From positions 1-64,000 of the forward strand of contig JAVLKG010000011.1 of the NCBI GenBank assembly GCA_032128875.1: 64,000 bases of DNA, given 5' to 3'. Below are positions 12,544-50,260 of this stretch, one piece after another; within the stretch, counting starts at the first letter, position 1; each line of letters opens with the position of its first letter. Source of the stretch: Candidatus Melainabacteria bacterium 17Bon1m. GTDB lineage: Bacteria; Cyanobacteriota; Vampirovibrionia; Obscuribacterales; Obscuribacteraceae. The notes beneath the pieces were generated by a model. The model made no database searches, was not told where the DNA came from, and was given only the letters and a program-made list of their open reading frames with translations. The position numbers were made by a program, and so were the translations under genes.

Positions 12544-12685
12544 CTTCTATTTGTTCGGGAGTCCTAAATACGGCGTCTAATCTTAATATCAAAGCAATTC
12601 TAACTTGCTCCCATATAATTAGTATCTGTTTTTAAAGGGTGCATGAATGCGCCCTTATCTCGACTCATAGAGGAGGCTGCTTCAC

Positions 12686-28407: not shown

Positions 28408-31400
28408 ATGAAATTTCTCGACGCGCTCAAAGAAAAGGTCCTCATCTTCGATGGGGCTATGGGCACGTCTATCCACACTTATGATTTGACGCTCGATGAT
28501 TACGAGGGTGCGGAAAACTGCCCGGAAATTCTGGTTGTTAGCCGCCCGGAAGTAATCAAAGAGATTCACGAGTCGTTTTTCAAGGTCGGTTGTGATGTTG
28601 TGGAAACAGACACCTTCGGCGGCTCGCCCATTGTTTTAGCCGAGTTTGGATTACAAGATAGAGCGTACGAACTCAATAAAAGAGCCGCTGAGTTGGCTCG
28701 TGAAGTCGCCGATGCATACTCTAAGGACGGGCAACAGCGCTATGTTTCAGGTTCGATAGGTCCGACGACAAAGCTTCCATCGCTGGGTCATATCAGCTTC
28801 GACGAGATGTGCGCAGCATATTACGTACAGGTTTCCGGACTTGTCGATGGCGGGGTTGATGTTCTTCAGTTCGAAACCGGACAGGACTTGCTCCAGGCTA
28901 AAGCCGCTGTCGTAGCGATGGTCGATTACTTCGAGAAGATCGGACGAAAGGTTCCAATCATCACTCAAGTTACCATCGAAGCGCCCCCATTAGGAACAAT
29001 GCTCGTCGGTACCGACATATCTGCTGCGCTTGCCACTCTGTGCGCGTTTCCAATTGATGTAATCGGTATCAACTGTGCGACCGGACCAAGTGAGATGATC
29101 GACCCGGTTCAATATTTGACGATGAACACGACGAAGTATGTGTCGTGTTTGCCTAATGCGGGCTTGCCGGAAAACGTAAACGGGCAGACTGTCTACAAGC
29201 TGACTCCAGATGATCTCGCCAATTCATTGAAATATTTTGTCAACGAACTCGGCGTCAATATCATTGGTGGATGCTGCGGAACGACGCCCGCTCACTTGAA
29301 GCGCGTGGTCGAAGTAATTGGACATGTGCCGCCAAAGGTTCGACACCCCGAATACACTCCTGCCGCTGCGAGCATCTATACATCAGTTGCGATGCACGTC
29401 GATCCGGCGCCATTGATAATCGGCGAGCGGACAAACACCAACGGCAGCCGTAAATTCAAACAGCTTCTCAACAAAGAAGATTGGGATGGCATGGTTGCGA
29501 TGGCTCGTGACCAAGAGAAGGAAGGCGCGCATGTGCTGGACGTTTGCACAGCCTATGTCGGCCGCGATGAAGTCAAAGACATGTCGACGTTCATCAGGCG
29601 ATTGAACACTGAATTGCAAATTCCTCAAGTCATCGACTCCACTGAATATCCAGTATTAGAAACAGCGCTCAAACTTATCGCCGGGCGCCCAATCATCAAT
29701 TCCATCAACCTCGAAGATGGCGTCGACAAGATGCTCAAAAAGGTTCGTTTGATCAAACGTTTTGGTGCCGCGACCATTGCTCTCACGATCGATGAAACTG
29801 GAATGGCGAAAGAAGCCGAGAAAAAACTCGAAGTAGCCAAACGCATTTATGACCTCTCGCTTGCAGAAGGGCTGCGCCCGGAAGATTTGATTTTCGATGC
29901 GCTGACATTCACACTCTCCACGGGCAACGAAGATGATCGCAAGCTTGGTCTGGCAACGCTAGACGGCATTCGCATGATCAAAGAAACTTTGCCTGGCGTT
30001 AAAACCGTACTTGGGGTCAGCAATATTTCGTTTGGTTTTGACCCGCATATTCGCCAGATCCTCAATTCTGTCTTTCTGCATTACGCTGTTGAAGCCGGTC
30101 TCGATATGGCTATCGTCAACGCGCAGAAGATTTTGCCTCTCTACAAAATTGATGAAGCCGAGCGCGAATTGCACAGAAAGCTTGTCTTCGATGAGCGCAC
30201 TCCTGACTATGATCCGCTCTTCAAGCTACTCGAGTATTATCAAAACACAGACACCAAGGCTGCGAAGTCGGTTAAGGATAAAGGTCCGCAAGAGATTGAG
30301 GACATTCTTAAAGAGCGCATCATCGATGGCAATCGCGTAGCACTTGAGAAAGATCTCGATATAGCGCTCAAGAAATATGCGCCGCTGGAAATTATCAATT
30401 CGATTTTGCTGGAAGGTATGAAAGTTGTCGGCGATCTTTTCGGCGCCGGCAAGATGCAGTTGCCGTTCGTTCTTCAGTCTGCCGAAACGATGAAGGCGTC
30501 CGTTGCTTACCTCGAACAATTCATGGAAAAGATCGAAGGATCTCAGCGTGGCACGATGGTATTAGCGACTGTCAAAGGTGATGTGCACGACATCGGCAAA
30601 AATCTTGTAGACATTATTTTGAGCAACAACGGCTATAAAGTAATCAATCTAGGCATCAAGCAGCCGATTGAAAACATCATTGCCTCTGCGATAGAGAACA
30701 AGGCCGATTGCGTCGGTATGAGCGGTTTGCTGGTTAAGTCGACCGTCATCATGAAAGAGAATCTGGAAATTCTCAACCAACGCGGTATTGGAATTCCGGT
30801 TATTCTCGGTGGCGCCGCGCTTACACGCCGCTATGTCGAAGACGATTGCCGACGAGTTTATAAAGGCACCCTCTTCTACGGGCAGGACGCATTCGATGAT
30901 TTGAAGATCATGGAAGCGCTTGCAAGCAAAGACGAAGCGATGATCGCAAAGATGATGGGTGCGCAACCTGGACAACATAATCCTGATGCGGATGACGATG
31001 CCGATGACCAGGGCGATGCCGATGGACTGGGGGATGCCGCTGACCAAGGCAAAGCAAATGACCAGAACAATGCCAATGGACAGAAGGATAGTTCTGACAA
31101 GGCGCTTCGGGTTACCGAAAAGAGAACGCAGCCGGAAACGCTTGATTTCAGCCCGGGTGAGCCTGAAGTGCGACCAGCCAAAAATGGAGCAAATTCTGGT
31201 TCTGAGCTGAATGCGCAGTCGAACGCCACTTCTAGTTCGACGACGACTTCAGATGTGAAACGAAACGAAGACACGTTTGCTCCGCCGTTTTGGGGCAGCA
31301 AAGTTGTTGAGGATGTTCCGCTTTCCGAGGTCTTCAAGTTTATCAACGAGAACGCATTGATTCGTGGGCAATGGAGAGTGCGTCAGGGTGACACGTCGAA

Positions 31401-32166
31401 TGCGGAGTACGAGGAGCTACTAAACACCAAGGTACGTCCAGTTCTTCGTTCACTTGAGAAAGATTGCATTGAGAAGAAATTGCTCGTCCCGAAAGCGGTC
31501 TACGGGTATTTCCCTGTCCAAGCTGACGGCAACGATTTGATTGTCTACAAAGTGAATGATTCTTTCCTCAAGAAAGTGAAAGAATTGGGTGTAAAAGCAG
31601 GCGATGTTTTGAAGCTGAAAGCTTCTGAAATCCCCGGTCTTGAGGAGTGGACGCGTTTCTCATTCCCTCGCCAAGATCACGCTCGCCATCTTTGCATATC
31701 CGACTTCTTCCATTCGCGAGACGAAGATTTGATTGATATTTTGCCTGCTCAGATTGTCACCATGGGGTCTGGTGCATCCGTCTATTCCGAACAATTATTC
31801 AAGAGCGATAGATACACTGATTATCTGTATTTCCATGGACTTTCCGTGGAGTCGGCAGAAGGACTCGCTGAGGTGATGCACAAACGTGTTCGCGAAGAAC
31901 TTGGACTTGGTAAATTCGACGCTGCAGATCGCAACAAGTTTTTCCAGCAAGGATATCGTGGTACCAGATATAGTTTCGGCTATCCTGCGTGCCCGAATCT
32001 CGAAGACCAAGTTCAACTGTTTCAACTCTTAGAACCGGAGCGTATTGGCGTGTCATTGAGCGAAGAGTTTATGCTCGTGCCGGAGCAATCGACATCAGCT
32101 GTCGTTGTGGTTCATCCTGAAGCTAAATATTTCAACGTAAAACGCCAAGAGTCTCTGATCTCATAA
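28408..32166 (+). CDS. metH: B12-dependent methionine synthase
   Basis: DGAMGT, GINCATGP, GGCCGT, IGERTN, B12 motif GDVHDIGKN...SGLL...GGAA, activation domain RYSFGYPACP. Confidence 0.97.
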   Translation: MKFLDALKEKVLIFDGAMGTSIHTYDLTLDDYEGAENCPEILVVSRPEVIKEIHESFFKVGCDVVETDTFGGSPIVLAEFGLQDRAYELNKRAAELAREVADAYSKDGQQRYVSGSIGPTTKLPSLGHISFDEMCAAYYVQVSGLVDGGVDVLQFETGQDLLQAKAAVVAMVDYFEKIGRKVPIITQVTIEAPPLGTMLVGTDISAALATLCAFPIDVIGINCATGPSEMIDPVQYLTMNTTKYVSCLPNAGLPENVNGQTVYKLTPDDLANSLKYFVNELGVNIIGGCCGTTPAHLKRVVEVIGHVPPKVRHPEYTPAAASIYTSVAMHVDPAPLIIGERTNTNGSRKFKQLLNKEDWDGMVAMARDQEKEGAHVLDVCTAYVGRDEVKDMSTFIRRLNTELQIPQVIDSTEYPVLETALKLIAGRPIINSINLEDGVDKMLKKVRLIKRFGAATIALTIDETGMAKEAEKKLEVAKRIYDLSLAEGLRPEDLIFDALTFTLSTGNEDDRKLGLATLDGIRMIKETLPGVKTVLGVSNISFGFDPHIRQILNSVFLHYAVEAGLDMAIVNAQKILPLYKIDEAERELHRKLVFDERTPDYDPLFKLLEYYQNTDTKAAKSVKDKGPQEIEDILKERIIDGNRVALEKDLDIALKKYAPLEIINSILLEGMKVVGDLFGAGKMQLPFVLQSAETMKASVAYLEQFMEKIEGSQRGTMVLATVKGDVHDIGKNLVDIILSNNGYKVINLGIKQPIENIIASAIENKADCVGMSGLLVKSTVIMKENLEILNQRGIGIPVILGGAALTRRYVEDDCRRVYKGTLFYGQDAFDDLKIMEALASKDEAMIAKMMGAQPGQHNPDADDDADDQGDADGLGDAADQGKANDQNNANGQKDSSDKALRVTEKRTQPETLDFSPGEPEVRPAKNGANSGSELNAQSNATSSSTTTSDVKRNEDTFAPPFWGSKVVEDVPLSEVFKFINENALIRGQWRVRQGDTSNAEYEELLNTKVRPVLRSLEKDCIEKKLLVPKAVYGYFPVQADGNDLIVYKVNDSFLKKVKELGVKAGDVLKLKASEIPGLEEWTRFSFPRQDHARHLCISDFFHSRDEDLIDILPAQIVTMGSGASVYSEQLFKSDRYTDYLYFHGLSVESAEGLAEVMHKRVREELGLGKFDAADRNKFFQQGYRGTRYSFGYPACPNLEDQVQLFQLLEPERIGVSLSEEFMLVPEQSTSAVVVVHPEAKYFNVKRQESLIS

Positions 32167-34287: not shown

Positions 34288-36267
34288 TTACGACTTAGCG
34301 CCGGCTTTTGCTTGCGACTTGTTCTTGATGCGTTTTACGAACTGGCACATATCGTCGTAGCGACCGAAGGATGGGACGACGTATGTTCCTTGGCACAAGG
34401 GACGAAGTTGTTCCAGCAGTTCTTCCGCGAGTTCCAAACCAACCGCAGCGCCCTGGTCGCCTGCCTTTTCCATGGCTTTGCGAACCTTGTCGGGAATCGT
34501 GATGCCGGGCACTTCGTTGTGCAAGTACTCTGCGTGCTTGAAGCTGTGCAGCGGCATAATGCCAACGAGAATTGGAATTTTGCACTCGCCAAATTCATCG
34601 AGGAAGTTGGTGAGGTCGCTCAATTGATACAGTGGTTGCGTCATCGCGAAGTGAGCACCTGCCTCAATTTTCTTGCCGAAACGATCGAGTTCTTGTGCGC
34701 GATTTTCGTGAGTCGGATTGAGCGCGCATGCGATTGATAGCGATGTTGGCGTTCCAATCGAATTGCCTGCAATGTCCAAGCCCTGATTGAGCTGGCTAAT
34801 GATTTTGATCAAACCTACGGAGTCGACGTCATACACTGCAGTCGCATGCACGTAGTTACCCAGTGCAGGCGGGTCGCCAGTAAGTGCAATGACATTGTGA
34901 ATGCCGAGAGCCTGGCAGCCGAGAAGGTCGGCTTGAATGCCCATCAAGTTGCGGTCGCGTGTGGTGAAGTGGATGATGGTTTCGATTCCGACTTTTGTCG
35001 AGATCAATTGGCAGGTCGCGAGCGATGACATACGCACACGAGCCATCGGGCTGTCTCCGACGTTAATTGCGTCTGCGCCTGCTTCTTTCAATGTTTCCGC
35101 CGCTTGCAATATTTTTCTTGCAATAGCGCCTTTGGGTGGATCGAGTTCTACGCTCACATAGAAATCACCATTTTTCGGATTTGCCTTCGCTGCTGTTAAA
35201 CGCGCTGCCAATGCGGGAAGTTCATTGCCTGGCTTGGGTACTTCCTTCTTAGTTTCTGTAGGACGTGTTTTGCCAGAAAGAGAAATCAGTGCTTCTGGTT
35301 TCATCGCAGGCAAATCTTGAGCAGTCGCAGCCGAAGCGGTTTTCTGCGACTCGATGTATTTGTCAAGCTCCGCTCGCATAGCTTTGATGTGATGCGGAGT
35401 CGTACCACAACATCCACCAATCAAGCGCGCACCCGCTCGCACGTATGGCTCAACATAAGATGCGCAGTAATCAGGTCCTGACATAAATTGATATCTGCCG
35501 CCGCTCAAGCTCGGCTGACCTGCGTTGGGTAAGCATGAATAGTTGAGCTTCGCAGGGTCTACACCACGCTCTTTCAAAGCATGAGACATGCGCAGAAGCG
35601 AATCAAATACTGGTCCCGGACCCGCACCGCAATTGATACCAATGACGTCAGGTGCATCTGCGCCTAACTCGACGAAAAGCTTCACCACATCTTCCGGTGT
35701 CACGCCCAAAAGTGTGTGACCATCTGGGGAGAAACTCATTTGTGCGACGACTGGAAGTTTTGAAACAGCTCTGGCCGCACGAACGGCAATGGCTGTTTCT
35801 TCCAGCGAGGACATTGTTTCGATCATAAACAAATCCACGCCGCCCGCCAAAAGCGCTTCCATTTGCTCTGTAAATGCGTCCTTCAGATCATTGGCGGTTA
35901 CATCACCAATAGGAGCCATCAATTTGCCCGTAGGTCCGACCGAACCTGCGACAAACACCGGTTGCCCGCCGACCTCTCGCGCGTTTCTTGCAACCTTGGC
36001 TGCCCACAAATTGATTTTGTGAGTTTCCGCCTCAAGACCGAACGATGCCAATCTGTACCTGTTGGCAGAGAAAGAGTTTGTCTCGATAACATCAGCACCC
36101 GCGTTGATGTAATCGATGTGGACCTTTTGAATCTCATCCTGCTTGGTCAGGTTGAGGTGCTCGAAGCTTGCTTCCGGGGATGCGCCCCGAGCATAAAGCA
36201 GTGTGCCTATGCCTCCATCTGCAAGTAGAGGTCTTTTCGCGAGCTCTTTGAGGAAGGGATGCGTCAT
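34288..36267 (-). CDS. Bifunctional homocysteine S-methyltransferase / 5,10-methylenetetrahydrofolate reductase (YitJ-like)
   Basis: DGGIGT, GINCGAGP, GGCCGTTP, then MTHFR motifs VELDPP, HFTTRDRN, ALTGDPP, FAMTQP; start at MTHPF after GGAG. Confidence 0.93.
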   Translation of the reverse strand: MTHPFLKELAKRPLLADGGIGTLLYARGASPEASFEHLNLTKQDEIQKVHIDYINAGADVIETNSFSANRYRLASFGLEAETHKINLWAAKVARNAREVGGQPVFVAGSVGPTGKLMAPIGDVTANDLKDAFTEQMEALLAGGVDLFMIETMSSLEETAIAVRAARAVSKLPVVAQMSFSPDGHTLLGVTPEDVVKLFVELGADAPDVIGINCGAGPGPVFDSLLRMSHALKERGVDPAKLNYSCLPNAGQPSLSGGRYQFMSGPDYCASYVEPYVRAGARLIGGCCGTTPHHIKAMRAELDKYIESQKTASAATAQDLPAMKPEALISLSGKTRPTETKKEVPKPGNELPALAARLTAAKANPKNGDFYVSVELDPPKGAIARKILQAAETLKEAGADAINVGDSPMARVRMSSLATCQLISTKVGIETIIHFTTRDRNLMGIQADLLGCQALGIHNVIALTGDPPALGNYVHATAVYDVDSVGLIKIISQLNQGLDIAGNSIGTPTSLSIACALNPTHENRAQELDRFGKKIEAGAHFAMTQPLYQLSDLTNFLDEFGECKIPILVGIMPLHSFKHAEYLHNEVPGITIPDKVRKAMEKAGDQGAAVGLELAEELLEQLRPLCQGTYVVPSFGRYDDMCQFVKRIKNKSQAKAGAKS

Positions 36268-36693
36268 GTGTCTCCGGGTTTCTTTCTTTGGCATAACTCA
36301 GGTTGTCGGGTGAAGGTCTGGAAGTAATTGTCGCCGGCGGTCGCCAATGGTTACCAGAGCGGAAATTGTGCTCCACGCGCCCGAGAGGACGCCAAGCCCA
36401 ACTACACCCTAAAATCGAATTTTAACACGCCGTTAAGGAGCTATGAGACGGGCGCCTGCCTGCGTTACGGAACATCTCACAGCCCCCGAAAGACCGCGCC
36501 CGACCAAATAGAGCAACGGGTTAGTGTGGTTTTATTGCTGATTTCTTGTCAAAACCTTCAGGTGGGCACCTGGCGGGCTTTTCCCTGATATCATACGGTT
36601 TGTTTAGACCACAGGCGCGCGCTCTGGTCTTTGTGAAGCCGCGCTAATAAGAGCTAACGCGTTTAACTCCCAGCAAATTTTATTTGGATCCCA

Positions 36694-38499
36694 GTGACAG
36701 CCGACCCTAATCTCATCCGCAACTTTTCCATCATCGCCCACATCGACCATGGCAAATCGACGCTGGCCGATCGTTTGTTGGAATACACCAAGACTATCGC
36801 CAAGCGCGACATGCAGGCTCAAATCCTCGACACCATGGATATCGAGCGCGAGCGCGGCATCACCATCAAAGCGCAGCCGGCGCGAATGGAATACACGGCG
36901 CAGGATGGCAAGCAATATATTTTGAATCTGATCGACACGCCTGGGCACGTCGACTTCGGTTATGAAGTCTCACGCAGTCTTGCTGCATGCGAAGGCGCGT
37001 TGCTAGTAGTTGATTCTAGTCAGGGCGTTGAAGCGCAAACTTTGGCAAACGTCCACCTTGCGGTGGAGAACAATTTGGAAATCGTGCCAATTATCAACAA
37101 GATCGACTTGCCTAGTGCCGATCCTGAGCGCATCCGCGCTGAGATTGAAGAAGTTATCGGGCTTGATGCCAGCCATGCTGTTTTGGCTTCGGCAAAGAAT
37201 CATATCGGTATTGAAGAAACCCTCGAAGCGATCGTGAATTTCATAGGACCCCCGCAAAATACAGTCGACAAGCCGCTTCGCGCGCTTGTATTTGACAGCT
37301 ATTTTGAAAGCTATCGCGGCATCATCGTTTATTTCCGCGTTAAAGATGGCGAAATCAAAATGGGCGACAAGATTCGCTTCATGAATAACAAGTCCGATTT
37401 CGAGGTCACGGAGTTGGGCGTTCTGCGTCCACAGCAGTACAAGGTCGACAGATTAGGACCCGGTGAAGTAGGTTATCTCGCCGCGTCTATCAAAGACGTA
37501 GCGACGCTCGTCGGCGATACGATTACACTCCAGGACAGACCTGCACCCGAGCCATTGCCGGGTTATCGCCCCGCAAAGCCGATGGTTTTCGCCGGACTCT
37601 ATCCAGTCGACAACGAGCAGTATCCGGATCTCCGCGAAGCGCTCGAAAAGCTGATTCTCAATGACTCTTCCTTGCAGTACGAACCAGAAACTTCCGAGGC
37701 GCTCGGTTTCGGATTTCGTTGTGGATTCCTTGGTTTGCTGCACATGGAAATCATTCAGGAGCGTCTTGAGCGCGAGTACGACTTGCGACTGATTACGACG
37801 GCTCCCTCAGTTGTATATCGCGTGACGAAGACAGATGGCAGTGTTCTTATGATTGAGAACCCTGCATTTTTGCCCGATCCAAACTATCGTACGATGATTG
37901 AAGAGCCATACGTGTCTGCTTCAATCATGGTGCCGAATGACTTCGTCGGGCAGATTATGGAACTCTGCCAGGGGCGCCGCGGTATCTTCCAAGATATGAA
38001 GTACTTGGATCCGCGTCGTGCGATGCTGCATTACGAGCTGCCTTTGGCAGAAATCATCACTGATTTCTTCGACCAATTGAAGTCGCGTTCTCGCGGTTAT
38101 GCAAGTCTCGATTATCACTTTCATGAGTACCGTGAATCCAATCTCGTGAAGCTGGATATTCTCATCAGCGGCGAACCTTGTGATGCCCTCTCTGCGATTG
38201 TTCACCGTGAGCGCGCTGCAAGTTATGGTCGTTTGCTTGCAGAGAAATTGAAAAAGCTTATCCCCAGACAGATGTTTGAAGTTCCGATTCAAGCGGCAAT
38301 CGGCGGCAAGATTATTGCGCGTGAAACAGTTTCAGCCCAGCGCAAAGACGTTTTGTCGAAGTGCTACGGTGGTGACATCTCCCGTAAGCGCAAACTCTTG
38401 GAAAAACAAAAAGAAGGTAAGAAGCGGATGAAGTCCGTTGGACGCGTCGAGATTCCGCAGGAAGCATTTATGGCTGTGCTCAAGCTTGAGGAAGACTAA
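36694..38499 (+). CDS. lepA: Elongation factor 4
   Basis: [62 protein letters not shown]. Confidence 0.99.
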
Positions 38500-39533
38500 T
38501 GCCCAAGGGCAAATCCGGTAAATCGGGCGACGATAAGCCAAAGAAGTCGGCGGCGAAAAAATCGGAACCTAAACCATCTGAGCAAGAACATTTGCAAGCG
38601 CAGAAGTTTATTGATGCTGGCGGCGGTGAGCCGGAAGTTTTTGATGAGGAAATCCAACTCGAGGATTCTCGCGTTTTCAAAATGCTGCAGGGACTACAGC
38701 TCTCTCCAGAGGAAGCACGTGAAGCAGCTGTCAGGCAGCGTAACTTGCTTATTGAATCCTGGAACACTCGCGATGAGCTTTACCGCGAATTATTCGGCGA
38801 GCCTAGATACGTAACTCCTGGTCCCTATGCACCGCCACCGGTGCTAAAGGCTGAGGATGTTATTTTGCCTGAGGATCAAGTAGAGCGCGGCGAAACTGGT
38901 GATCCTGGAAATCCTAATCTCGACGAGCAGCACCTCAATATCCTCGTCTACGCACCGGATCCGACACGCCCTTACTGGACCTATGTCACCGCTGGATTGA
39001 GCAGTCCCTGGCTGCAAGATGCACCTGCGGAAGTTACTGGCTTTGGCTGCGAGATCATGATTAAGACAAAGGAAGATATGCCATGGGCTGCGCAAATTCT
39101 TCGCACCCTGGCGTTCTACATTCTCAATCATGCCGGCACCCTATCGCCTGGTGTTCGAATAGATTTGAACGGACCGATCATTCCGGGCTCCAACTCGAAG
39201 CTCAGTAACATCTTTATTTGGTATCCAGACGATGCACCTGATTGTTGGTATTACCTACCTTCTGGTGGCTTCGGTTTGTTCATAGCTATCGGCATCACGC
39301 CAGACGAAAGACAATTCGCAGAGTCCATTGAAGAATATGGCACTTGGTGCATCCAACAAGTACTTCGCCAGATGGGACACGATCAAGTCACCGATCCTTA
39401 TCGCGGCACGGTTATGGATCAAGAAGGAATTGGCCTTGCTTTGTTGAAGACAAAATCCTTCGCAGATAACTTCCGTGCGAATGTTGCATACGGTAGTGAA
39501 CCCTCATATGGCAATGAGTCTTTTGAGTCGTAA
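38499..39533 (+). CDS. Suppressor-of-fused (SuFu) domain protein
   Basis: YWTYVTAGLS, GFGCEIMIKT, WAAQILRTLA.Y, IGITPDE; TAATG overlap with lepA. Confidence 0.8.
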   Translation: MPKGKSGKSGDDKPKKSAAKKSEPKPSEQEHLQAQKFIDAGGGEPEVFDEEIQLEDSRVFKMLQGLQLSPEEAREAAVRQRNLLIESWNTRDELYRELFGEPRYVTPGPYAPPPVLKAEDVILPEDQVERGETGDPGNPNLDEQHLNILVYAPDPTRPYWTYVTAGLSSPWLQDAPAEVTGFGCEIMIKTKEDMPWAAQILRTLAFYILNHAGTLSPGVRIDLNGPIIPGSNSKLSNIFIWYPDDAPDCWYYLPSGGFGLFIAIGITPDERQFAESIEEYGTWCIQQVLRQMGHDQVTDPYRGTVMDQEGIGLALLKTKSFADNFRANVAYGSEPSYGNESFES

Positions 39534-39538
39534 GCGCC

Positions 39539-39865
39539 GTGTCCAATCGCGAAGACGATGAAGATAACTTCAAACAGTGGCTTGGCGGAAGAGTTCAAGA
39601 CGCAAAACTTACGCCTGGCGAGGTAGAGGAATTCACATCATGGTTGATGTCGCGTTCGTGCGAGACCAAACATGAGGGAACTAAAGTTTCCTTCAAAGAA
39701 GTTTTGGAACTTGCCTCCTGGTTTGGCAGCCGCATGACGAGCGTGTTCTTCAAAGGCGATGAGCGCAAAGAGCTTTCCGGCTGGTTGTCTGATCGCCTTC
39801 AATCGCACAGCTGTCTCAGCGAAGACGAACTCAAACAAATTCAAGACGAACTCCGTGAGAAGTAA
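39539..39865 (+). CDS. Hypothetical protein with four WLxxR repeats
   Basis: FKQWLGGR, FTSWLMSR, LASWFGSR, LSGWLSDR; 5 bp after the SuFu gene. Confidence 0.6.
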   Translation: MSNREDDEDNFKQWLGGRVQDAKLTPGEVEEFTSWLMSRSCETKHEGTKVSFKEVLELASWFGSRMTSVFFKGDERKELSGWLSDRLQSHSCLSEDELKQIQDELREK

Positions 39866-39914
39866 TAACTGTCCGCGTTTGACTTAGGGTCGACGCCATA
39901 CGTCGACCACACTC

Positions 39915-40157
39915 CTAGCGGACGTTCTGCTCTTCATCTTTACGCTTTGCCCACTTACCCATAAGCTCACAGGCGACCGCAACCATGTCGGGGTCAAACT
40001 CTGAGATGTAATCTCGATAGTCGTCGAATTTTGGGTCGGACTTCAAAGTTTCAAAAATGTCGTGCTCCGATTGCCCACTTGCGAGCAGCTCGAGAAGTGC
40101 GTCTTGGAACTTTGCTAGCGTTTCCTCCTCGTTCGCTTTTATTTCTTTATCAGGCAT
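39915..40157 (-). CDS. Small MNIO-associated protein (80 aa)
   Basis: ATG overlaps the MNIO stop (ATGCCTGA), GGAG RBS; helical LAKFQDALLELL...FDPDMVAVACELMGKW. Confidence 0.75.
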   Translation of the reverse strand: MPDKEIKANEEETLAKFQDALLELLASGQSEHDIFETLKSDPKFDDYRDYISEFDPDMVAVACELMGKWAKRKDEEQNVR

Positions 40158-41028
40158 AGCAGAACTCCAAAATTTCTTCCATCGTTTCGAAGTCTTCGCG
40201 GAATTCTTCTTGTGCTTCAGGTTCCATCATCGTGTAACCGAGTCTTTCCATAATCACAAATTCAATGTTGGGACACAGTTTCAGTGCAAGCGTTGCGAGA
40301 TTGAAAACCTCCTGAGGCACGGCATCATCGTGCGTATCACGGCGCACAGCAGCTCGTTTACCCGATATGGAATGGCTCCATGTGCCGCCGGAGAGATGAA
40401 TTTCGCGTACTTTAGCCAGCGGATATGAGTTCAAAAGTTCTAGCTCTGCGACGCCAAAATTTGCTAATTGGCAGTAAATATTGTGCAAGTCTAATAGCAA
40501 GAAACCATCTACCGCGGAAATCAATTGGTCGATAAAATCTCCCTGCCTTTTCACATCTTCGAGGCTGAATGCAAATGCTAGATTCTCCAGTCCCACCGGG
40601 CATTGCGTTGCATCAGCGTAGCGCTTCAGCATCTCCTTGCCTTTGCGCAAGGACTCGGCATTCATTGGTACCGCAAGTGGTGCACCCTGCGCAATTGGTC
40701 CTGCTTCTGAAAAACCAAAATGCTCTGATGCATGAACATATTTTCGAGCCTTGAATTCTTCTCTTGCGTTATCGAGCCATTTCTCTTGGCGTTGTGAAAA
40801 CCGTGCAGAAAGTGGCGATAGATTGACACCGTGCCCTGTCAAAGCCTTCTTCGCGCTGAATTCGTCGAGTATTTTGATACACCATTCGCTGACTTGTGCA
40901 CCATTCCATGAAAAGTCAAAACTCCACTCGATTGCTTTTACTTGCCCGTTTTGAAACAGCGGAACCGTCGCCTGCTCGAAGTCTTCCGTCGGCATCAACG
41001 ATAGTCCAAGTTTAGGTTTGTATTGCAT
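40150..41028 (-). CDS. DUF692 / multinuclear non-heme iron oxidative enzyme (MNIO), ChrH-like
   Basis: Metal-ligand motifs GHG, SEHFGF, VGLENLAF, LLLDLHNIYCQ, EIHLSGG, RRDTHD, IMER; IEWSFD and RRDTHD recall the chryseobasin enzyme ChrH. Confidence 0.9.
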   Translation of the reverse strand: MQYKPKLGLSLMPTEDFEQATVPLFQNGQVKAIEWSFDFSWNGAQVSEWCIKILDEFSAKKALTGHGVNLSPLSARFSQRQEKWLDNAREEFKARKYVHASEHFGFSEAGPIAQGAPLAVPMNAESLRKGKEMLKRYADATQCPVGLENLAFAFSLEDVKRQGDFIDQLISAVDGFLLLDLHNIYCQLANFGVAELELLNSYPLAKVREIHLSGGTWSHSISGKRAAVRRDTHDDAVPQEVFNLATLALKLCPNIEFVIMERLGYTMMEPEAQEEFREDFETMEEILEFCYA

Positions 41029-41058
41029 CCGTCCACCTGGTCTCGTTCTGCGAAATAC

Positions 41059-42078
41059 CTAACCCATACCGCAATCTACGGCATACATATCTTGCTGTAA
41101 AGTCCACCATCTCAGGTGACCGCAAGCACCGTCAACTGGATAGAGTATTTTTTCATCTCTAATCCCAACCAAGTTATACAGGACATTTTTTTCGCTATCA
41201 GCGAGTGACTTCTTCCCAAGTTGCTCGTACCAGAGTGCCATATCTCGGTGCATCTTTCGCCTAAGATGTTGATCTGGTCCTAGGCGATCTGCAAGTGTGA
41301 TTGCTCTTAACCGGAGCTTTTCGCTTTTGTTGAAGTCGCTTTTAGTAAATGGATTAACATGTATTTTTCGCTCGCCGATTGCGCTTTTCGGCTCCCTATC
41401 CGTAATGCTGATCGGAATAATGTCCATTGCAAGCAAGTTCAATGCGGTGCATGCAGATTCAATTTCTTGTATGTCGATTTGCGTCTTTGCCTCACAAGTT
41501 TTAACTGCATCATCAATGCGAGTTTTGCATTCCGAAATTCCAGTAGTGTTTTCAGTTTTCTCGTAAATTCGCATGGCGATAAAGCATATTATCAACTTCG
41601 AGTACTTGTCTGTCATCGCATCTAGTTGCGACACTGCTAGATCGATTGCGGAATTTGCCAAAGCTCTATTTTGCTTCTTCTCTTCAGTGTTCGTTTTATG
41701 CGGCTCTGGCTTATTGTCTTTGAAAACAAAGAAAAATTTTCCTGTAAAAACATCTTGCGCCCAGCCATCAAGGGTGTTTCTGAATCTTCTGGGAATTTGG
41801 AAGGCTTTCGTTTGGTTCGCTAGTTCAGAAAATCTCGCTTCAAGATCTTTCTTATCGCATCCAGCCAAATAGTCTCTTGCAAGTGTCAGTAGAAAGAATG
41901 CTCTTATTTCAGGAGACAGATGTGAATTGTTGGCGATTTTTTGTCCGATGAGAGAATGTGACTCTGATTTGTTCTCGTTCGCTGCACTGACAGGTAGGAG
42001 TGCATTAAGTAGGCTGCTTGCAAAGACAATTGCTAGTAACGCCTTTTTCTGCCGTTCGTTTTTGCTGGGTGTTTTCAA
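41059..42078 (-). CDS. Exported helical protein with CGMG C-terminus, paralog A (candidate MNIO substrate)
   Basis: Signal peptide ending VSA-A; ends CGHLRWWTLQQDMYAVDCGMG-stop. Confidence 0.8.
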   Translation of the reverse strand: MKTPSKNERQKKALLAIVFASSLLNALLPVSAANENKSESHSLIGQKIANNSHLSPEIRAFFLLTLARDYLAGCDKKDLEARFSELANQTKAFQIPRRFRNTLDGWAQDVFTGKFFFVFKDNKPEPHKTNTEEKKQNRALANSAIDLAVSQLDAMTDKYSKLIICFIAMRIYEKTENTTGISECKTRIDDAVKTCEAKTQIDIQEIESACTALNLLAMDIIPISITDREPKSAIGERKIHVNPFTKSDFNKSEKLRLRAITLADRLGPDQHLRRKMHRDMALWYEQLGKKSLADSEKNVLYNLVGIRDEKILYPVDGACGHLRWWTLQQDMYAVDCGMG

Positions 42079-42155
42079 AGTCTAAAACCTAATCACACTT
42101 TGTCCGTTTGATTTTGGAGTCGCAGCGAAGCAGAGATACTTCCCTTCATTCTATG

Positions 42156-43190
42156 CTAACCCATGCCGCAGCCACCCCGAATCCGGAGTTCCTTGGTTTC
42201 CCACCACACAATATGTCCGCATCCTGCTTGCCGAGGATATAAAAGGCTGTCGCTTTTGTCACCAACCAGTTGAAAAAGTAGTTGTTTCTGCTGCTCAGAC
42301 TTTTCCTTTTTGCCAAGTTCTCTGTACCAGAGTGTCAAATTCCTGTGCGCCATCCTTCGTGCATGATCAATCGCGGGCAACTTATCGAGAATTGCTGCTG
42401 CCCTTAATCTTAGGCTTTCGCTCTCAAGAAAATTTCTTTCGGAGTATGATTCTAATGGCTTGGTTTTACCTCCCCATGGATAACTAGGGTCGGCTATGCG
42501 AAGCGAAATAGACTCGTTTGACATCAAGTTAAGCACCGAGGCTGTTGCTTTCCTTTCCTCTGTGGATGCAGAAGGGTTCTTTTCGCAATCGCTAATTGCG
42601 GTGTTCAACAGTATTTCGCATTTACGCGCTTCGATTGTGTCTCCAAGCTTGGTAAATACTCTCAACGCAATGAAGTGAAGATTCAACTTCGTGAATGATT
42701 TGGAAGCTTTCTCTAGTTGCCTGACAGCAGATTTTGCGGATTTGTCGGCTAATCTCATATTTTCAGCTGACGTTGTCCACACTTTCTTGTTTGACTTTGT
42801 GACTGAATTGGGCGGATACGATGTTCCATTTTCATCAGAATCAATTTGATCTGCCCACGAGACAAATATTCCTTCTCTTTTTTCGACGTTTTCCAGAAAA
42901 GAAAGATTGTCTCTGAGGTTTGCATATCTCGCATTGATTGACTGGGTCTCTGTTCCGATCAAAAAGTCCGTAGCGACTCTCAGCAGATAATAGGCTCTAA
43001 CCTCCGGAGAAAGATCTTGGTTTGTTGACAGTTGTGCAATAACGGAATCTTGTGCTGCAGTAATGTTAGTCGAGTTGGAATTATTGTCCGCAGAAAGAGA
43101 AATTTGCGGAAAGAGAATTCCGCTTGCGAAAGCAATTGCAATCAACGATCTTGTTCTATTATTTTTTTCGTCGGGCTTTATTTTTCTCAT
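42156..43190 (-). CDS. Exported helical protein with CGMG C-terminus, paralog B
   Basis: Signal peptide; ends CGHIVWWETKELRIRGGCGMG-stop. Confidence 0.8.
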   Translation of the reverse strand: MRKIKPDEKNNRTRSLIAIAFASGILFPQISLSADNNSNSTNITAAQDSVIAQLSTNQDLSPEVRAYYLLRVATDFLIGTETQSINARYANLRDNLSFLENVEKREGIFVSWADQIDSDENGTSYPPNSVTKSNKKVWTTSAENMRLADKSAKSAVRQLEKASKSFTKLNLHFIALRVFTKLGDTIEARKCEILLNTAISDCEKNPSASTEERKATASVLNLMSNESISLRIADPSYPWGGKTKPLESYSERNFLESESLRLRAAAILDKLPAIDHARRMAHRNLTLWYRELGKKEKSEQQKQLLFQLVGDKSDSLLYPRQAGCGHIVWWETKELRIRGGCGMG

Positions 43191-43247
43191 TGGTTCTTGA
43201 TTCTCTCAGCCGCGGATTTTAGGCGTATATCTTTGTCCCAATTCGGT

Positions 43248-44285
43248 TTAACCCATGCCACAGCCAATAAGCGCGCCTTTGTAGGATTTGCCTGTTTGCC
43301 ACCAACTAACATGCCCACAACCACCGGGTTTAGCATACAGAATATCTTCGTCTTCAGTGCCAACAAGTTGGAACAAAATTTGTTTTTGCACTTTTGCCAA
43401 TTCTGGTTTGTTCAAGGCTAAATACCAAAGAACCAGGTCTCTATGCGTTTTCCTGCGTTCATGACTGCTCGGCGATAGCCGATCGATTATTGCTGCAGCT
43501 CTTAGCTTGAGACTTTCACTTTCTCTAAAATCGGCCTCGCTGAATGGCTTAACTCTCGGTACTCGCGCCCCGGGAGTAGTCTCAGGAGAGAAATCCGGTA
43601 TTCTGACAGGAATTTTTCTGTTTGCCATCACGTTCAAAATCGTTGAGACTGCCACTGCCTCTCCTCCGATGACGGACGGATTTTTTTCACATGACAGGAT
43701 CGAGTTGTCTAGGTATTTCTTGCATCGCTGAACGCCGCTCTCATTACCGGTTCTTTTAAAGAGATTTTCTGCGATTAAATACATGTCTAAAATCATTGTT
43801 TTGTTTGAGACTTTTTCTAGTTGCTTCAGAGCCGCCAGAACTGCTGAATCTGCAGCTTTAATTATGGACGGCGAGCTTGTCTGGCGCGCAGATTTGCCTG
43901 CTGTGTAACTCATCCCGTGCTTGTTACCCTCGGTATTTTCGACGACTTGAAGTACCCAATCATCCAGAACTTTGCCTCTCTTGAATAGCAAGTTTCCGTG
44001 CATTGGCTGGATACTTCTGAAGCTGTCATCTACGATCTTTTGATCGTTGTTTGCAAGATATGCTTCAGCCAGGCGAAGCAAATAGTATGCACGAACCTCT
44101 GCGGGCATTTCTGTGCGTTTCGCAATCATTTGTATCGCTGATTCATTCAATTGCGCCGGTTCCGGTGTTTTTTGCAATTTGACAGGTGCATTCCCCTCTG
44201 CAGGAAGTTGGTGCTGAAGAATTCCAGCTGCGAACATGATTGCGAGAAGCGTTTCTCGTTTAGAAGCTCTTCTATTTCTTTGCAT
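43248..44285 (-). CDS. Exported helical protein with CGMG C-terminus, paralog C
   Basis: Signal-like N-terminus; ends CGHVSWWQTGKSYKGALIGCGMG-stop. Confidence 0.8.
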   Translation of the reverse strand: MQRNRRASKRETLLAIMFAAGILQHQLPAEGNAPVKLQKTPEPAQLNESAIQMIAKRTEMPAEVRAYYLLRLAEAYLANNDQKIVDDSFRSIQPMHGNLLFKRGKVLDDWVLQVVENTEGNKHGMSYTAGKSARQTSSPSIIKAADSAVLAALKQLEKVSNKTMILDMYLIAENLFKRTGNESGVQRCKKYLDNSILSCEKNPSVIGGEAVAVSTILNVMANRKIPVRIPDFSPETTPGARVPRVKPFSEADFRESESLKLRAAAIIDRLSPSSHERRKTHRDLVLWYLALNKPELAKVQKQILFQLVGTEDEDILYAKPGGCGHVSWWQTGKSYKGALIGCGMG

Positions 44286-44498
44286 GCAATTAAGTCTCCA
44301 TCGGTACTTCCCGGAAGTGTTTTTACTCTCGCAAAATGCGAGGAGTAAGACATAGGAAACGACAGAAGTTGCTTAGTAACTTTCTTACGGTCAGCCGGCA
44401 GCTTTGCTCTCCGGACGATTTTACGATATTAAAAACCCTACCAGCATTTTCCTACGGCGAACACCGTGAAATTACTATATTTTTGGTAAGTCTTGGCG

Positions 44499-45449
44499 CT
44501 ACCCCATCCCGCACGCTGGGCAGGGCGGTGCTGGGGGAAACAGCGTGTTGCGGTCGGTTGTGTGCATCAGGTCGCTCAAAATCTTCGTAGCAAACTCTTC
44601 TTTCTTCGTATCGCCGTATAAGTGGTACCAAAAGACCATATTCCGATGCGCATCAATTCTTGTCGGATCGGCAGGCGGAAGGCGGTCGTAGGCATTTAGC
44701 GCTCGCAAATGATAGTCTTCTGCGAGTTTGAAATCCTTGTGTTTTATTGTGCCCGGCTTTGTTGGCGAATCGTCCGGGACTACCTGCATTGGTTGCATCA
44801 TACGTGCAGCGCGGAATGCCGGTGAAGGCGCGTACAACTGCGCCATACGGAGCAACATCATTGCTAGTGAAAGATACTCTTCGCGTTTTAAATTGATGTC
44901 AGACTCGAGAAGTTTTAGCTCGCGATCGTAAGCTGCTGTCGTCTCTCGTTCTTCCGCCTCCATTCCTGCCATTCGATAACCTTGAATGGCACGCAAACCA
45001 TAGTAAAGTCTTTCGAGTGATGCGGCTGGATACTTATTGGCATACGGTTGACCATCATGTAAAACCTGTTGGGCTTTTGCTTTCAACTCGCGGCGCAAGC
45101 TGTCTGAGTACGATTTTTCAGCGCTTGCAGTGAGCAAAGCTAGTGCGTAGGTGCTAAACATATTCGGCAACGGATTGTTCTTAGGATTGGCGGTTGCCTT
45201 TTGAGCCACGACTGCTTTGTTAAACGTCTCATCGGCTTCTTTTATCATGCCGTTTCTTGCGTACATGCTGCAAAGATTGGCTAGGCGGATAGGGTATTGC
45301 GCATTGTCTTTTCCCTGCTGCGCGATAAATTCCTCGAACTGTTTTTCGGCAATTTTGACTGCCGCTTTGTCTGCGCGCGCTGGTAAAGAACCAACCATAA
45401 TTCCCAAGGCGACTAATGAAGTGACTACCTTTGAAGATGTGTTTTTCAT
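44499..45449 (-). CDS. Exported TPR-like protein ending CPACGMG, paralog D
   Basis: Signal peptide ending ARA-D; ends LFPPAPPCPACGMG-stop. Confidence 0.85.
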   Translation of the reverse strand: MKNTSSKVVTSLVALGIMVGSLPARADKAAVKIAEKQFEEFIAQQGKDNAQYPIRLANLCSMYARNGMIKEADETFNKAVVAQKATANPKNNPLPNMFSTYALALLTASAEKSYSDSLRRELKAKAQQVLHDGQPYANKYPAASLERLYYGLRAIQGYRMAGMEAEERETTAAYDRELKLLESDINLKREEYLSLAMMLLRMAQLYAPSPAFRAARMMQPMQVVPDDSPTKPGTIKHKDFKLAEDYHLRALNAYDRLPPADPTRIDAHRNMVFWYHLYGDTKKEEFATKILSDLMHTTDRNTLFPPAPPCPACGMG

Positions 45450-45492
45450 TAGACCCTCGAAATATTCAATACACCAGTGTGCTCAAATGTAA

Positions 45493-46473
45493 TTATCCCC
45501 TGCCGCACCCATGGCAAGGATCTTTGGGAGGAAAGAGGACATTCTTATCGGTCGAGTGCAATAACTTACTCAAAATCTGCGTCTGGGCTTTTTCCTGGTC
45601 GGTTTGTTTGAAAAATGCATACCATTTTGCAAGGCGACGGTGTGCCGCTATTCTCCTCTGGTCGCTTTCAGGCAGTTTGTCGTAAAACGTTATTGCTCGT
45701 AGCTCGTATTTTTCTCCGGCTTTGAACTTCGATAGGCGTGTCGACGACGGGCTTAAGAATGGTTCGCTATCGTTAACTACTTCCTTGGTTGCCATTGCGG
45801 TGAAATCTGTATTGGATGGAGATTCACAAAGGAATTGCGACACAGCGATCAAGTTTTTTGCAACTCGTACCGCTTCTTCGTTTGACAATTTTGGAGTACT
45901 TCCAAGTGCGTCGACCAGCGCATCAAATGACCTCAAGACAATGTTCATTTCGCGCTGTTTTCCCAACGATTTATAGAATCCGATTGCGTTGACCATGAAA
46001 CTCAAGCGTTGCGCCGAATTAATCGGAAGTTTGCTTACCAATTTCAGTCCTTCTGCAACAACTTCTTCGGCGTTTTGTAAGTCGGCCCTGTACGCGCTTT
46101 CCAGCCCTGCGTAATTCTGTGATTCAGCGGGCGTCATAAATCTTGCAATCTGTGGTCGGTAGGTAAGACTTGTTGCCCAGTTCATCATTGTGCCCGGCAC
46201 ATCAAAGTTCTTTATCGTCGATCCGATTTCTATTGCCTTGCGATATGTCTCATTAGCCTCCTTTCTTTGACCGTTTGCTTTGTACGCGTTGGCGAGTTTC
46301 ATTAGTTGATAAACATACGAGGGGCTGGCCGTTTGTCCTCGTGATTCAAACGTTTTTACGCTTGCTTCCGCGGTTTGAAGAGCCGCAAGATTGTCTGCGC
46401 GTGCGTAATGACTTGAAAGACCCATGCTGCATAACAGCAATGAGCTGAAGACGAGGCGAGACTTATTTTTCAT
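45493..46473 (-). CDS. Exported TPR-like protein ending CHGCGRG, paralog E
   Basis: Start MKNKSRL at 46473 after AAGGA; signal peptide ending ARA-D; ends LFPPKDPCHGCGRG-stop. Confidence 0.8.
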   Translation of the reverse strand: MKNKSRLVFSSLLLCSMGLSSHYARADNLAALQTAEASVKTFESRGQTASPSYVYQLMKLANAYKANGQRKEANETYRKAIEIGSTIKNFDVPGTMMNWATSLTYRPQIARFMTPAESQNYAGLESAYRADLQNAEEVVAEGLKLVSKLPINSAQRLSFMVNAIGFYKSLGKQREMNIVLRSFDALVDALGSTPKLSNEEAVRVAKNLIAVSQFLCESPSNTDFTAMATKEVVNDSEPFLSPSSTRLSKFKAGEKYELRAITFYDKLPESDQRRIAAHRRLAKWYAFFKQTDQEKAQTQILSKLLHSTDKNVLFPPKDPCHGCGRG

Positions 46474-46675
46474 TCGTATCCTTATTGAGTTCAAACTCAT
46501 TTGTGTTCTGACCATTTCGCCAGACTTGATTTTGCGCGAGTCAATCCGCAATCGATTGGCTCGACTTCGTCCTTTTGCCTGATTTAGCAGACTTTTGGCA
46601 TGATTGCTCCTCATGCCCATTTTTTACGCAGGCTAGAAAAATTGCACTGGGGTTAACCCAAAAGAAAATGTCGGA

Positions 46676-47719
46676 CTAACGCTTGGTCGCTGTGACCTTT
46701 TCTTTGTCCGATGCGGGCAAAGTTTTTTCCGGCTTGGTCCAATATTGGTCGCGGTGCTTCGCGTAGTATTCGATGGTTTTGGCGATGCCTTCTTCCAAGC
46801 CGGTACGAGGACGCCAGCCTGTGAAGCGTTCGATTTTGGAGATATCCGAATAAAAATCGCCCGGTTCTTGAGCTTTTCTTTCCGGCGAAAACTCGGCAAA
46901 CTGCCAACGACCCGACTTCGCCACTTTTACGATGGCGTCGCACAATTCTCTGAAGCTGACCGGGATGTCAGAGCCGACGTTGAAGATTTCTCCATAGCAT
47001 TCAGGGGTGGTGGCGACGCGCAAGATTGCATCGACGCAATCATCCACGTAGCAGAAATCGCGCAGAATGCTGCCGTCTCCGAACACCTGAATTGTGTCGT
47101 CGTCCATCGCCAGGCGGATGAACCAGTTGGCGACGCCGAAGCGCGAGTGCATCATTTGCGAACGCGGTCCGTAAATATTGCTCAAGCGCAATGAGCAAGA
47201 ACGAATGCCGTGCACATCGTTGTATACCTTGATGATTTTTTCGGCGGTGAGATTGGAAATCTCGTAAATGCCCTTTGGATTTGTCGGCGCTTCTTCGTTG
47301 ACCGGCATCGAAACAACCGAGCCATACTGTCCGCGTGTACCTGTGTAAACAACTATCGCGTCCGGATTATGTTTGCGCAGCGCCTCCATAACAATGGCGG
47401 TGCCGGTGATATTCATCTCAATATCCGGAAACGGATTGGAAAGGCTCATCAGGTGGCAAACCTGACCAGCAAGGTGGAAAACATAGTCCTGACCGCGCAC
47501 CAGCCAATCGACGGCTGAGGGGTCTCTGATGTCGCAAAAGTTGATGCGGATTTTTTCAGATTCGGTGACGTTGAAGACGTTGCCGCCGTAATCCGGGATC
47601 ATGGCGTCCAGAATAGTCACCTTCGCGCCCAGCTCTGCCAGCTTTATAGCCAGATTCGAACCGATGAAGCCCATGCCACCAGTTATGAGAGCTGTCTTAC
47701 CTTTGAATTGTTCGATCAT
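46676..47719 (-). CDS. NAD-dependent sugar-nucleotide epimerase/dehydratase
   Basis: TGGMGFIG, FHLAGQ, TGTRGQYG, LRLSNIYGP, RDFCYVDD. Confidence 0.9.
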   Translation of the reverse strand: MIEQFKGKTALITGGMGFIGSNLAIKLAELGAKVTILDAMIPDYGGNVFNVTESEKIRINFCDIRDPSAVDWLVRGQDYVFHLAGQVCHLMSLSNPFPDIEMNITGTAIVMEALRKHNPDAIVVYTGTRGQYGSVVSMPVNEEAPTNPKGIYEISNLTAEKIIKVYNDVHGIRSCSLRLSNIYGPRSQMMHSRFGVANWFIRLAMDDDTIQVFGDGSILRDFCYVDDCVDAILRVATTPECYGEIFNVGSDIPVSFRELCDAIVKVAKSGRWQFAEFSPERKAQEPGDFYSDISKIERFTGWRPRTGLEEGIAKTIEYYAKHRDQYWTKPEKTLPASDKEKVTATKR

Positions 47720-49934: not shown

Positions 49935-50179
49935 GTGGGGGCGCGTTGCACGCGCCCTTTTTTTCTGTCTTCGTGGGGGCGCGTTGCACGCGCCCTTTTT
50001 TTTGTTTCGTGGGGGCGCGTTGCACGCGCCCTTTTTTTCTGTCTTTCGTGGGGGCGCGTTGCACGCGCCCTTTTTCTTGTTTCGTGGGGGCGCGTTGCAT
50101 GCGCCCTTTTTTTCTGTCTTTCGTGGGGGCGCGTTGCACGCGCCCTTTTTCTTGTTTCGTGGGGGCACGTTGAGCGCCC
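49935..50179 (+). repeat. Tandem array of seven REP-like palindromes
   Basis: GTGGGGGCGCGTTGCACGCGCCC starting at 49935, 49973, 50009, 50048, 50084, 50123 and 50159 (last degenerate), joined by T-rich linkers; spacing alternates 38-39 and 36 bp. Confidence 0.9.
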
Positions 50180-50260
50180 TCTGTCTTAAATCTGGGAGGG
50201 GCGAGCGCTCCAGCCGGTCGATGCATGGCATCTACCCTACACTAAAAGGGCTTGCTTACC

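Follow-up and report, generated by a model that had tools for sequence, protein, structure and literature searches.

A conserved class of MelA-type proteins with a long Cys-Gly…CGMG tail, encoded beside a ChrH-like MNIO in the Obscuribacteraceae and candidate for enlarged macrocycles

Introduction

The mel cluster of a Melainabacteria isolate encodes MelA1, a 34-kDa secreted helical-repeat protein ending in CPACGMG, together with the MNIO MelH and the small protein MelHc, and both MelH and MelHc are required for a −4 Da modification of this end (PMC13056109). Here we analyse a related cassette found in a window of 64,000 nucleotides (positions 1 to 64,000 of contig JAVLKG010000011.1, forward strand) from Candidatus Melainabacteria bacterium 17Bon1m, a member of the Obscuribacteraceae (order Obscuribacterales; assembly GCA_032128875.1). 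Three of its five MelA-like paralogs, named A, B and C below, do not end in CPxCGxG. They carry a much longer tail in which the upstream cysteine, hereafter Cys1, is separated from the terminal CGMG by 16 to 18 residues. We report that this tail defines a conserved class of precursors that prevails in the bacterial family, and we consider what the associated MNIO might make of it.

The published chemistry frames this question. As far as the accessible text of the papers goes, the reaction of ChrH and DybH is described only on CPxCGxG ends, where it yields a four-residue ring (PMC13056109, PMC13733907), and the main text of PMC13056109 gives this motif as conserved across the whole subfamily. 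According to the same source, the extra C-terminal helical domain of ChrH-type MNIOs is encoded separately, as MelHc, in Cyanobacteriota. The second Cys of the motif is oxidised first, to a thioaldehyde, and its mutation abolishes all modification (PMC13733907). When the first Cys is mutated (DybA C44A), four-electron oxidation of CGMG and hydantoin formation still occur. Dissolved glutathione then captures the electrophilic intermediate, for which an episulfide structure has been proposed, so that ring closure by the first Cys is the last step (PMC13733907). The seven-residue motif is sufficient on GFP, and both CPPCGMG and CPAACGMG, the latter with a ring one residue larger, are tolerated (PMC12636315). 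The mel system has been known since 2026. As far as searchable text goes, the C-G-x-x-x-W-W…CGMG tail class is undescribed: we found no mention of it in the searchable full text, including the landscape paper PMC12452194, although the supplements of PMC13056109 may show such genes.

Results

A mel-type cassette with two kinds of precursor tail

The cassette consists of seven consecutive minus-strand genes running from 46620 to 39915: five paralogs of about 316-345 amino acids, transcribed in the order E, D, C, B, A, then an MNIO gene and finally an open reading frame (ORF) of 80 amino acids. It matches the published mel cluster in its MNIO, its split C-terminal domain and its helical-repeat proteins with signal-peptide-like N-termini, two of which have CPxCGxG ends. 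The features are the following:

45493..46473, minus strand: paralog E, melA-like, short class, CHGCGRG end; the ORF as listed reaches 46620
44499..45449, minus strand: paralog D, melA-like, short class, 316 amino acids, CPACGMG end (tail 44502-44522)
43248..44285, minus strand: paralog C, melA-like, long-tail, 345 amino acids; ORF and family profile match
43251..43319, minus strand: tail of C, residues 323-345, Cys pair separated by 18 residues
43686..43724, minus strand: internal C-x10-C-E of C
42156..43190, minus strand: paralog B, melA-like, long-tail, 344 amino acids; ORF and family profile match
42159..42221, minus strand: tail of B, residues 324-344
42582..42620, minus strand: internal C-x10-C-E of B
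41059..42078, minus strand: paralog A, melA-like, long-tail, 339 amino acids, TTG start; family profile match at 1e-136, in the long clade
41062..41124, minus strand: tail of A, residues 319-339, C-G-H-x2-W-W-x10-C-G-M-G
41491..41529, minus strand: internal C-x10-C-E of A
40150..41028, minus strand: MNIO, MelH-like, 292 amino acids
39915..40157, minus strand: MelHc-like ORF, split C-terminal helical domain, 80 amino acids, with an 8-base overlap with the MNIO stop

The start of E is likely Met50, at 46473, and a near-identical database protein (P0009) has 326 amino acids. Paralogs A-C align with D and E over their full length, and all five are encoded beside the MelH/MelHc-like pair. In sequence, the N-termini of A-C begin with a basic N-region, after which comes a hydrophobic stretch, and their consensus is conserved. 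The first-pass annotation of the window had read the tails of A-C as C-G-H-x-x-W-W-x(10-12)-C-G-M-G, and we recovered them exactly so at the coordinates above, with the Cys pairs at residues 319/336, 324/341 and 323/342, that is 16, 16 and 18 residues apart. The C-terminal CPxCGxG is present in D and E and absent from A-C, which keep its CGxG half and have 16-18 residues between the two Cys. [quoted passage not shown]

The long tail recurs throughout a large protein family

The same long tail was found in homologues from other genomes and metagenomes, and in sequence terms its recurrence is far beyond chance. A nine-sequence family profile (seven long-tail and two short proteins), run against 1.84 billion representative proteins, gave 254 matches at E ≤ 0.001, and this one profile retrieved both the long and the short tail class. 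We then considered 152 proteins, made up of the best 150 of these 254 matches and six proteins from the first search. The pattern C-G-x3-W-W-x(6-20)-C-G-x-G stood at the C-terminus of 114 of them, while 12 ended in C-x-x-C-G-x-G, 21 in another CGxG and 5, mostly fragments, lacked the end; the class ratio is biased, as the profile favours long-tail proteins and 104 of the matches lie outside the best 150.

In a relaxed set of 131 long tails, Cys1 was followed by Gly in 123, the two Trp of WW were present in 119 and 123, and the end was CGMG in 116. The gap between the two Cys was 16 residues in 79 of these tails, with a range of 8-28; spacings across the family are 2, 3, 5, 8, 11 and 14-28. Among 103 aligned full-length long-tail proteins, C324, W329, C341, G342 and G344 (numbering of B) are invariant, and G325 and M343 are kept in 96 and 91, respectively. 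The consensus tail of the family reads C-G-x-(L/V)-(V/I)-W-W, a variable loop of 9-12 residues, and C-G-M-G at the exact C-terminus. This strict retention of a terminal G-M-G fits the hydantoin chemistry, which, according to the text of PMC13056109, consumes the amide nitrogens of Gly and Met.

The His of the CGH triplet behaved differently. The annotation had described CGH, WW and CGMG as invariant, which is true within A-C; family-wide, C, G, the two W and CGxG are near-invariant but His is not. The position after Cys1-Gly is His in 51, Ser in 24, Gln in 14 and Arg in 11 of the 131 relaxed tails, and His occupies it in 47 of the 103 aligned proteins and in 30 of the 57 long-tail ORFs of the gene clusters described below. 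Conservation of CGHxxWW in homologues, on which the annotation had made its reading depend, thus extends to C, G and WW and not to H. Its alternative proposal, a metal site involving CGH, is weakened accordingly, His being found in only 39-53% of long tails.

The loop between WW and CGMG had been called hypervariable. It is variable, but not uniquely so, ranking 28th of 300 ten-residue windows. Its ten columns have a mean entropy of 3.54 bits, compared to 2.48 for the mature protein, and are embedded in the otherwise best-conserved C-terminal 90 residues. Loop identity is 0.09-0.13 between long-tail proteins whose bodies are 0.28-0.42 identical, and 0.83 at a body identity of 0.95 (only 3 pairs). 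A word-based search for short peptides sharing residues 296-344 of B found none, which is weak evidence of absence.

In order to place the tail types on a phylogeny independent of the tails themselves, trees were built on proteins trimmed of their last 40 residues; they are unrooted, and the ancestral tail type is not assignable from them. A single branch splits 27 short or intermediate rows from every long-tail row. It received an SH-like (Shimodaira-Hasegawa-like) support of 100 with FastTree on 185 rows and an SH-aLRT (approximate likelihood ratio test) support of 100 in a quick IQ-TREE run on 70 rows, of which 34 long rows were randomly drawn. The long tail is, on these alignments, the mark of a deep conserved clade and not a local oddity.

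Long-tail genes accompany most Mel-type MNIOs

We next turned to the enzyme side. The family profile matched 43 of the 107 genomes of the order, every one in the window's family, and gave no match in 400 other genomes sampled across the phylum. With a threshold of E ≤ 1e-40, the MNIO was detected in 63 of these 107 genomes, and the copies fall into two tiers: 28 genomes hold a copy 64-100% identical to that of the window, referred to as Mel-type, and the remainder a copy with 41-55% identity. The clusters of all 28 first-tier genomes were examined; since clusters and proteins are related, the counts that follow are not independent events. Long-tail genes are the only precursor genes in 20 clusters (one of these being a 4.4-kb contig that ends inside a precursor gene), five clusters are mixed, including that of the window, and three contain short or intermediate genes only. 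Altogether they encode 77 precursor ORFs: 57 long, 15 short, 3 intermediate, whose Cys are spaced by 3 or 5 residues, and 2 without the end. All 8 clusters holding short-class genes belong to the window's own genus.

Long-tail genes share the strand of the MNIO and sit immediately upstream of it. Four of the five mixed clusters have their long-class genes next to the MNIO and their short-class genes upstream; L066, the fifth, has its long-class gene beyond the Hc ORF, on the downstream side. Across all 28 loci only the precursor family and the MNIO are constant, and the next most frequent neighbour occurs in 9. The Hc ORF was below the length limit of this comparison and was seen after the MNIO, or fused to it, when the regions were inspected. 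Seven of 8 second-tier loci examined had a precursor of 178-262 amino acids with a CxxCG(M/R)G end, and none had a WW tail. Because long-tail proteins are the only precursors in 20 of 28 Mel-type clusters, the gene neighbourhoods support them as genuine partners of the MNIO, and the long tail appears as the prevailing precursor type in this bacterial family. The ChrA/ChrH-like setting that the annotation had given these tails was well placed.

Several loci depart from this arrangement. The source genome carries, outside the window, an orphan short-class paralog of 295 amino acids with a CHGCGLG end (G000:C1:267335-268222, minus strand), a sixth family member with no MNIO nearby, and two related genomes (L037 and L038) each have a single long-tail gene with no MNIO next to it. 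A second, different MNIO locus of the source genome, also outside the window (L002, G000:C6:181834-185406), encodes a 321-amino-acid MNIO with a partner-like ORF of 268 amino acids downstream and two signal-peptide ORFs upstream, one of which (101 amino acids) is made of about seven repeats of E-(G/S/A)-S-C-K-(G/S)-K-E. This locus looks like an oxazolin- or bufferin-type system.

The two cysteines of the tail are coupled

Cys1 is found exactly 5 residues before WW in 141 of 159 long-type rows, most of the others having it 1-2 positions further off. Among long-type rows with a complete tail region, it is absent in only three. In two of these, P0035 and P0058, Asn replaces Cys1 and the tail has acquired a terminal C-x-G-C-G-M-G, with the new Cys two residues before CGMG; in the third, P0138, both Cys1 and the CGMG end are gone. 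For each of the 202 family rows with a CGxG end, another Cys is found no more than 30 residues upstream; of 30-residue windows drawn at random from the bodies of the same proteins, 27.7% contain a Cys. This contrast is not a probability, the 202 rows being related to one another. These exchanges, together with the constant second Cys, indicate that Cys1 takes the part played by the first Cys in CPxC, and support a functional coupling of Cys1 to the CGMG end. Taken alone, this coupling fits a thioaminal ring or a disulfide alike.

The MNIO is ChrH-like with a split C-terminal domain

The MNIO of the window contains the MbnB/TglH/ChrH domain PF05114 (E 4.3e-28; 98.7 bits, where the Pfam gathering score is 25). 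Its best NCBIfam model is NF050165, MNIO_ChrH (2.7e-99, 332.6 bits, profile positions 1-283 of 363), with BufB as runner-up family at 85.6 bits. The score is below the curated NF050165 cut-off of 600 bits, but P0253 and P0229, relatives with the two parts fused, reach no more than 325-350 bits either, indicating that the equivalog model misses this lineage. By these profile scores the enzyme is ChrH-like and not a ChrH equivalog. Across 54 homologues there is no variation at H66, D180, H182, H211, D231 and H233, and conservation of H103 is at least 90%. These residues fall within 1-3 positions of the published DybH iron ligands H65/H102, D179/H210 and D228/H230 (from the accessible text of PMC13733907), a comparison of residue numbers and not of aligned sequences.

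The part of the profile missing from the MNIO is supplied by the 80-amino-acid ORF. It aligns to residues 310-376 of P0229, a fused homologue of 377 amino acids (57% identity, 4e-27), and to residues 292-359 of P0253, a fused homologue of 366 amino acids (2e-11); both of these fused proteins extend over positions 9-361 of the ChrH profile, whose length is 363. By this alignment the ORF is the split C-terminal domain and is MelHc-like. Of the first 20 regions retrieved, 17 have a counterpart of this ORF after the MNIO, and second-tier ChrH-like MNIOs occur with the C-terminal domain either fused or split. In one related genome (L072, G481:C1:238000-257999, ORF 11980-13152) the Mel-type MNIO and the C-terminal domain form a single ORF of 390 amino acids, so the split is not fixed within this lineage.

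Predicted structures place Cys1 in a turn ahead of a putatively mobile end

AlphaFold2 models of B and C, each computed with a 103-sequence alignment, are all-helical repeat bodies with a mean pLDDT (predicted local distance difference test score) of 85.5 and 85.4 and a predicted template modelling score of 0.81 for both. In both, Cys1-Gly is positioned between two short strand segments, with pLDDT values of 88-89 up to WW. In B, C324-G325 lies between strands 320-323 and 326-328 and residues 329-344 are modelled as coil; the pLDDT is 89 for residues 321-330, 77 for 331-340 and 58 for 341-344. In C it drops to 64 for the loop and 54 for the CGMG end. The models thus fit a fixed Cys1 and a mobile end able to reach the enzyme and return. 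Searches with a PDB sequence profile, with Foldseek against the PDB and in the ESM Atlas returned generic helical-repeat, TPR or 14-3-3-like resemblance only, none significant.

The internal C-x10-C-E pair that had been pointed out in A, B and C is indeed present in all three, and D and E are without it. It occurs in 103 of 171 long rows compared to 0 of 20 short rows (rows partly redundant). A disulfide within this pair was considered and rejected as unlikely, because in the model of B both Cys (191 and 202, 11 residues apart) lie on one helix, 185-204, and because only one of them is present in 37 of 103 long-class proteins, against 63 with both. From its distribution, the pair is a feature of the long clade and not a required partner of the tail.

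Other features of the window

A promoter and terminator scan of 39500-47000 found sites no more frequent than in shuffled sequences. We also looked for transcription in three RNA-library runs that contain the stretch: each has it as a single contig of 13 kb, with the sequence found in that sample's DNA run, and this evidence was set aside for possible DNA carry-over. A SUFU-family gene (PF05076, 6.5e-20) lies just downstream of the MelHc-like ORF, convergent with it, at 38499-39533 on the plus strand, and is beside the cassette in 9 of 28 loci; genes nearest to the mel cassette, the only neighbours compared, are kept in at most 9 of the 28. Sulfur- and methionine-cycle genes are abundant in the window (12686-15325, 28408-32166, 34288-36294 and 59865-61028). 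They encode a PLP/CBS enzyme (PLP, pyridoxal phosphate), a PLP enzyme of Cys/Met metabolism, a B12-dependent methionine synthase, a homocysteine methyltransferase-MTHFR fusion and an AdoHcy-hydrolase-like protein, and their link to a Cys-modifying cassette is unproven. At 49935-50180, between a glycosyltransferase gene and an aminotransferase gene, there is a tandem array of GC-rich hairpin and T-run units, with a period of 36 (6.6 copies) or 75 (3.3 copies).

Discussion

The sequence comparisons assign A-C to a large conserved clade of MelA-type, probably secreted helical-repeat proteins, and we propose the following course for their maturation. The cytoplasmic MelH/MelHc pair would bind the flexible CGMG end of the long-tail protein, whose last Cys would be oxidised and the backbone rearranged to a hydantoin from the Gly and Met amides, as in MelA1, DybA and ChrA. 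Cys1, held in a tight C-G turn and tied by the WW segment to the rest of the protein, would then offer its thiol to the electrophilic intermediate, so enclosing the variable loop in a ring of 18-20 residues where CPACGMG gives a ring of four. The modified protein would finally be exported through its putative signal peptide. We are confident, short of certainty, that the long tails are MNIO substrates at CGMG. Closure of an intramolecular ring by Cys1 is an even call: by analogy, a larger ring, which the annotation had raised as a possibility, is plausible because the late capture step accepts a thiol from solution (glutathione) and the ring tolerates enlargement.

Several considerations weigh against such a ring. 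Both the modification of the long tail and its cyclisation are inferred from conservation and published analogues. The enlargement on record amounts to one residue, and capture across a 16-residue gap may be less efficient than capture by a cellular thiol. A protein with a cross-linked loop of 18-20 residues would still need to be exported. A mere nucleophile does not need the near-invariant Gly that follows Cys1, which may denote a turn or a second site of modification. We looked for a hairpin register in the loop and found no covariation signal of hydrophobicity or charge in 96 tails, so that pre-organisation of the loop is not supported. Finally, the relatedness of the counted clusters and proteins, already mentioned, applies to every count used here.

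This missing register signal would fit a reading in which MelH/MelHc modified CGMG while Cys1 captured the intermediate of a partner subunit, or stayed free and formed a metal or redox site with the hemithioaminal thiol and, where present, the His. According to the text of PMC13056109, MelA1 is dimeric, which would allow capture in trans, and the DybH product retains one free thiol; His is moreover the commonest residue after C-G (47 of 103). However, S, Q, R, N, G, T, M or D replace it in about half of the long tails, and a Cys-His site therefore cannot be the conserved function. The Cys gained two residues before CGMG upon loss of Cys1 points instead to the role of the first Cys of CPxC, and thus to ring closure. 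We regard this pair of alternatives as unlikely, though worth keeping in mind. It is considerably less probable that Cys1, in its C-G context, is itself a second MNIO target giving a heterocycle or an aldehyde-type product, with two modified sites per tail. A Gly does follow both Cys (Cys1 in 96 of 103), and several MNIOs act on Cys-Gly contexts, EGKCG and CGMG (text of PMC13056109). Yet Cys1 is internal, while DybH is described in the accessible text as recognising the C-terminal motif and modifying its second Cys only (PMC13056109, PMC13733907, PMC12636315), and the turn predicted at C-G is enough to explain the Gly.

A plain periplasmic disulfide between the tail Cys, formed independently of the MNIO on proteins that are not its substrates, would suit exported proteins with paired Cys, all the more as processing of the long tails is itself inferred. 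But 20 of the 28 Mel-type clusters would then be left without another candidate substrate, and long-tail genes directly precede the MNIO on the strand that they share with it. Nor does a disulfide need the exact C-terminal G-M-G, kept in 103 of 103 (G342 and G344) and 91 of 103 (M343) proteins. We consider this explanation highly improbable.

Returning to the ring closed by Cys1, a broader scenario can be drawn. Obscuribacterales-type bacteria might employ a ChrH-type MNIO to staple loops of 18-20 residues and diverse sequence onto the C-terminus of secreted helical-repeat proteins through a thioaminal link next to a hydantoin, with 2-5 tandem paralogs displaying different loops on a shared conserved scaffold for different targets, as a macrocycle repertoire carried by natural proteins; this would be the largest ring of the enzyme class and the main Mel product. 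We put this forward tentatively, as possible rather than probable. If the long tails do mature as proposed above, ChrH/DybH chemistry would already extend in nature to rings about five times larger, formed on 34-kDa folded proteins whose loop accepts nearly every sequence, and this would be of direct interest for enzymatic macrocyclisation of peptides and proteins. Functional work on the mel system would then also be redirected, as the usual substrate type in the genomes examined would be the long-tail class and not CPACGMG.

The closest relatives of the cassette help to delimit what is new in it. With MelA1/MelH/MelHc it shares a split ChrH-type MNIO accompanied by a small C-terminal-domain protein, helical-repeat precursors of 30-40 kDa with a putative signal peptide, a motif at the exact C-terminus and, in D and E, the CPxCGxG end; it differs in that A-C place Cys1 16-18 residues upstream in a C-G-x-x-x-W-W context instead of C-P-x-C. 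The short precursors of the second-tier loci, from the same bacterial family, match the C-terminal part of the family profile, have a CxxCG(M/R)G end and lie beside a ChrH-like MNIO, but they have 178-262 amino acids, their MNIO is 41-55% identical to that of the window, and the WW tail is found in 0 of 7. DybA/DybH and ChrA/ChrH belong to the same MNIO subfamily by best NCBIfam match and have a terminal CGMG as the site of oxidation and hydantoin formation; there, according to the accessible text, the ring-closing thiol is that of the upstream Cys (PMC13056109, PMC10214503, PMC13733907, PMC12636315), a role that Cys1 would take in A-C. Their substrates are peptides of 5-8 kDa, lipidated in the case of DybA, and carry a four-residue ring, the largest shown being that of the engineered CPAACGMG, whereas in A-C the substrate would be a protein and the putative ring would comprise 18-20 residues.

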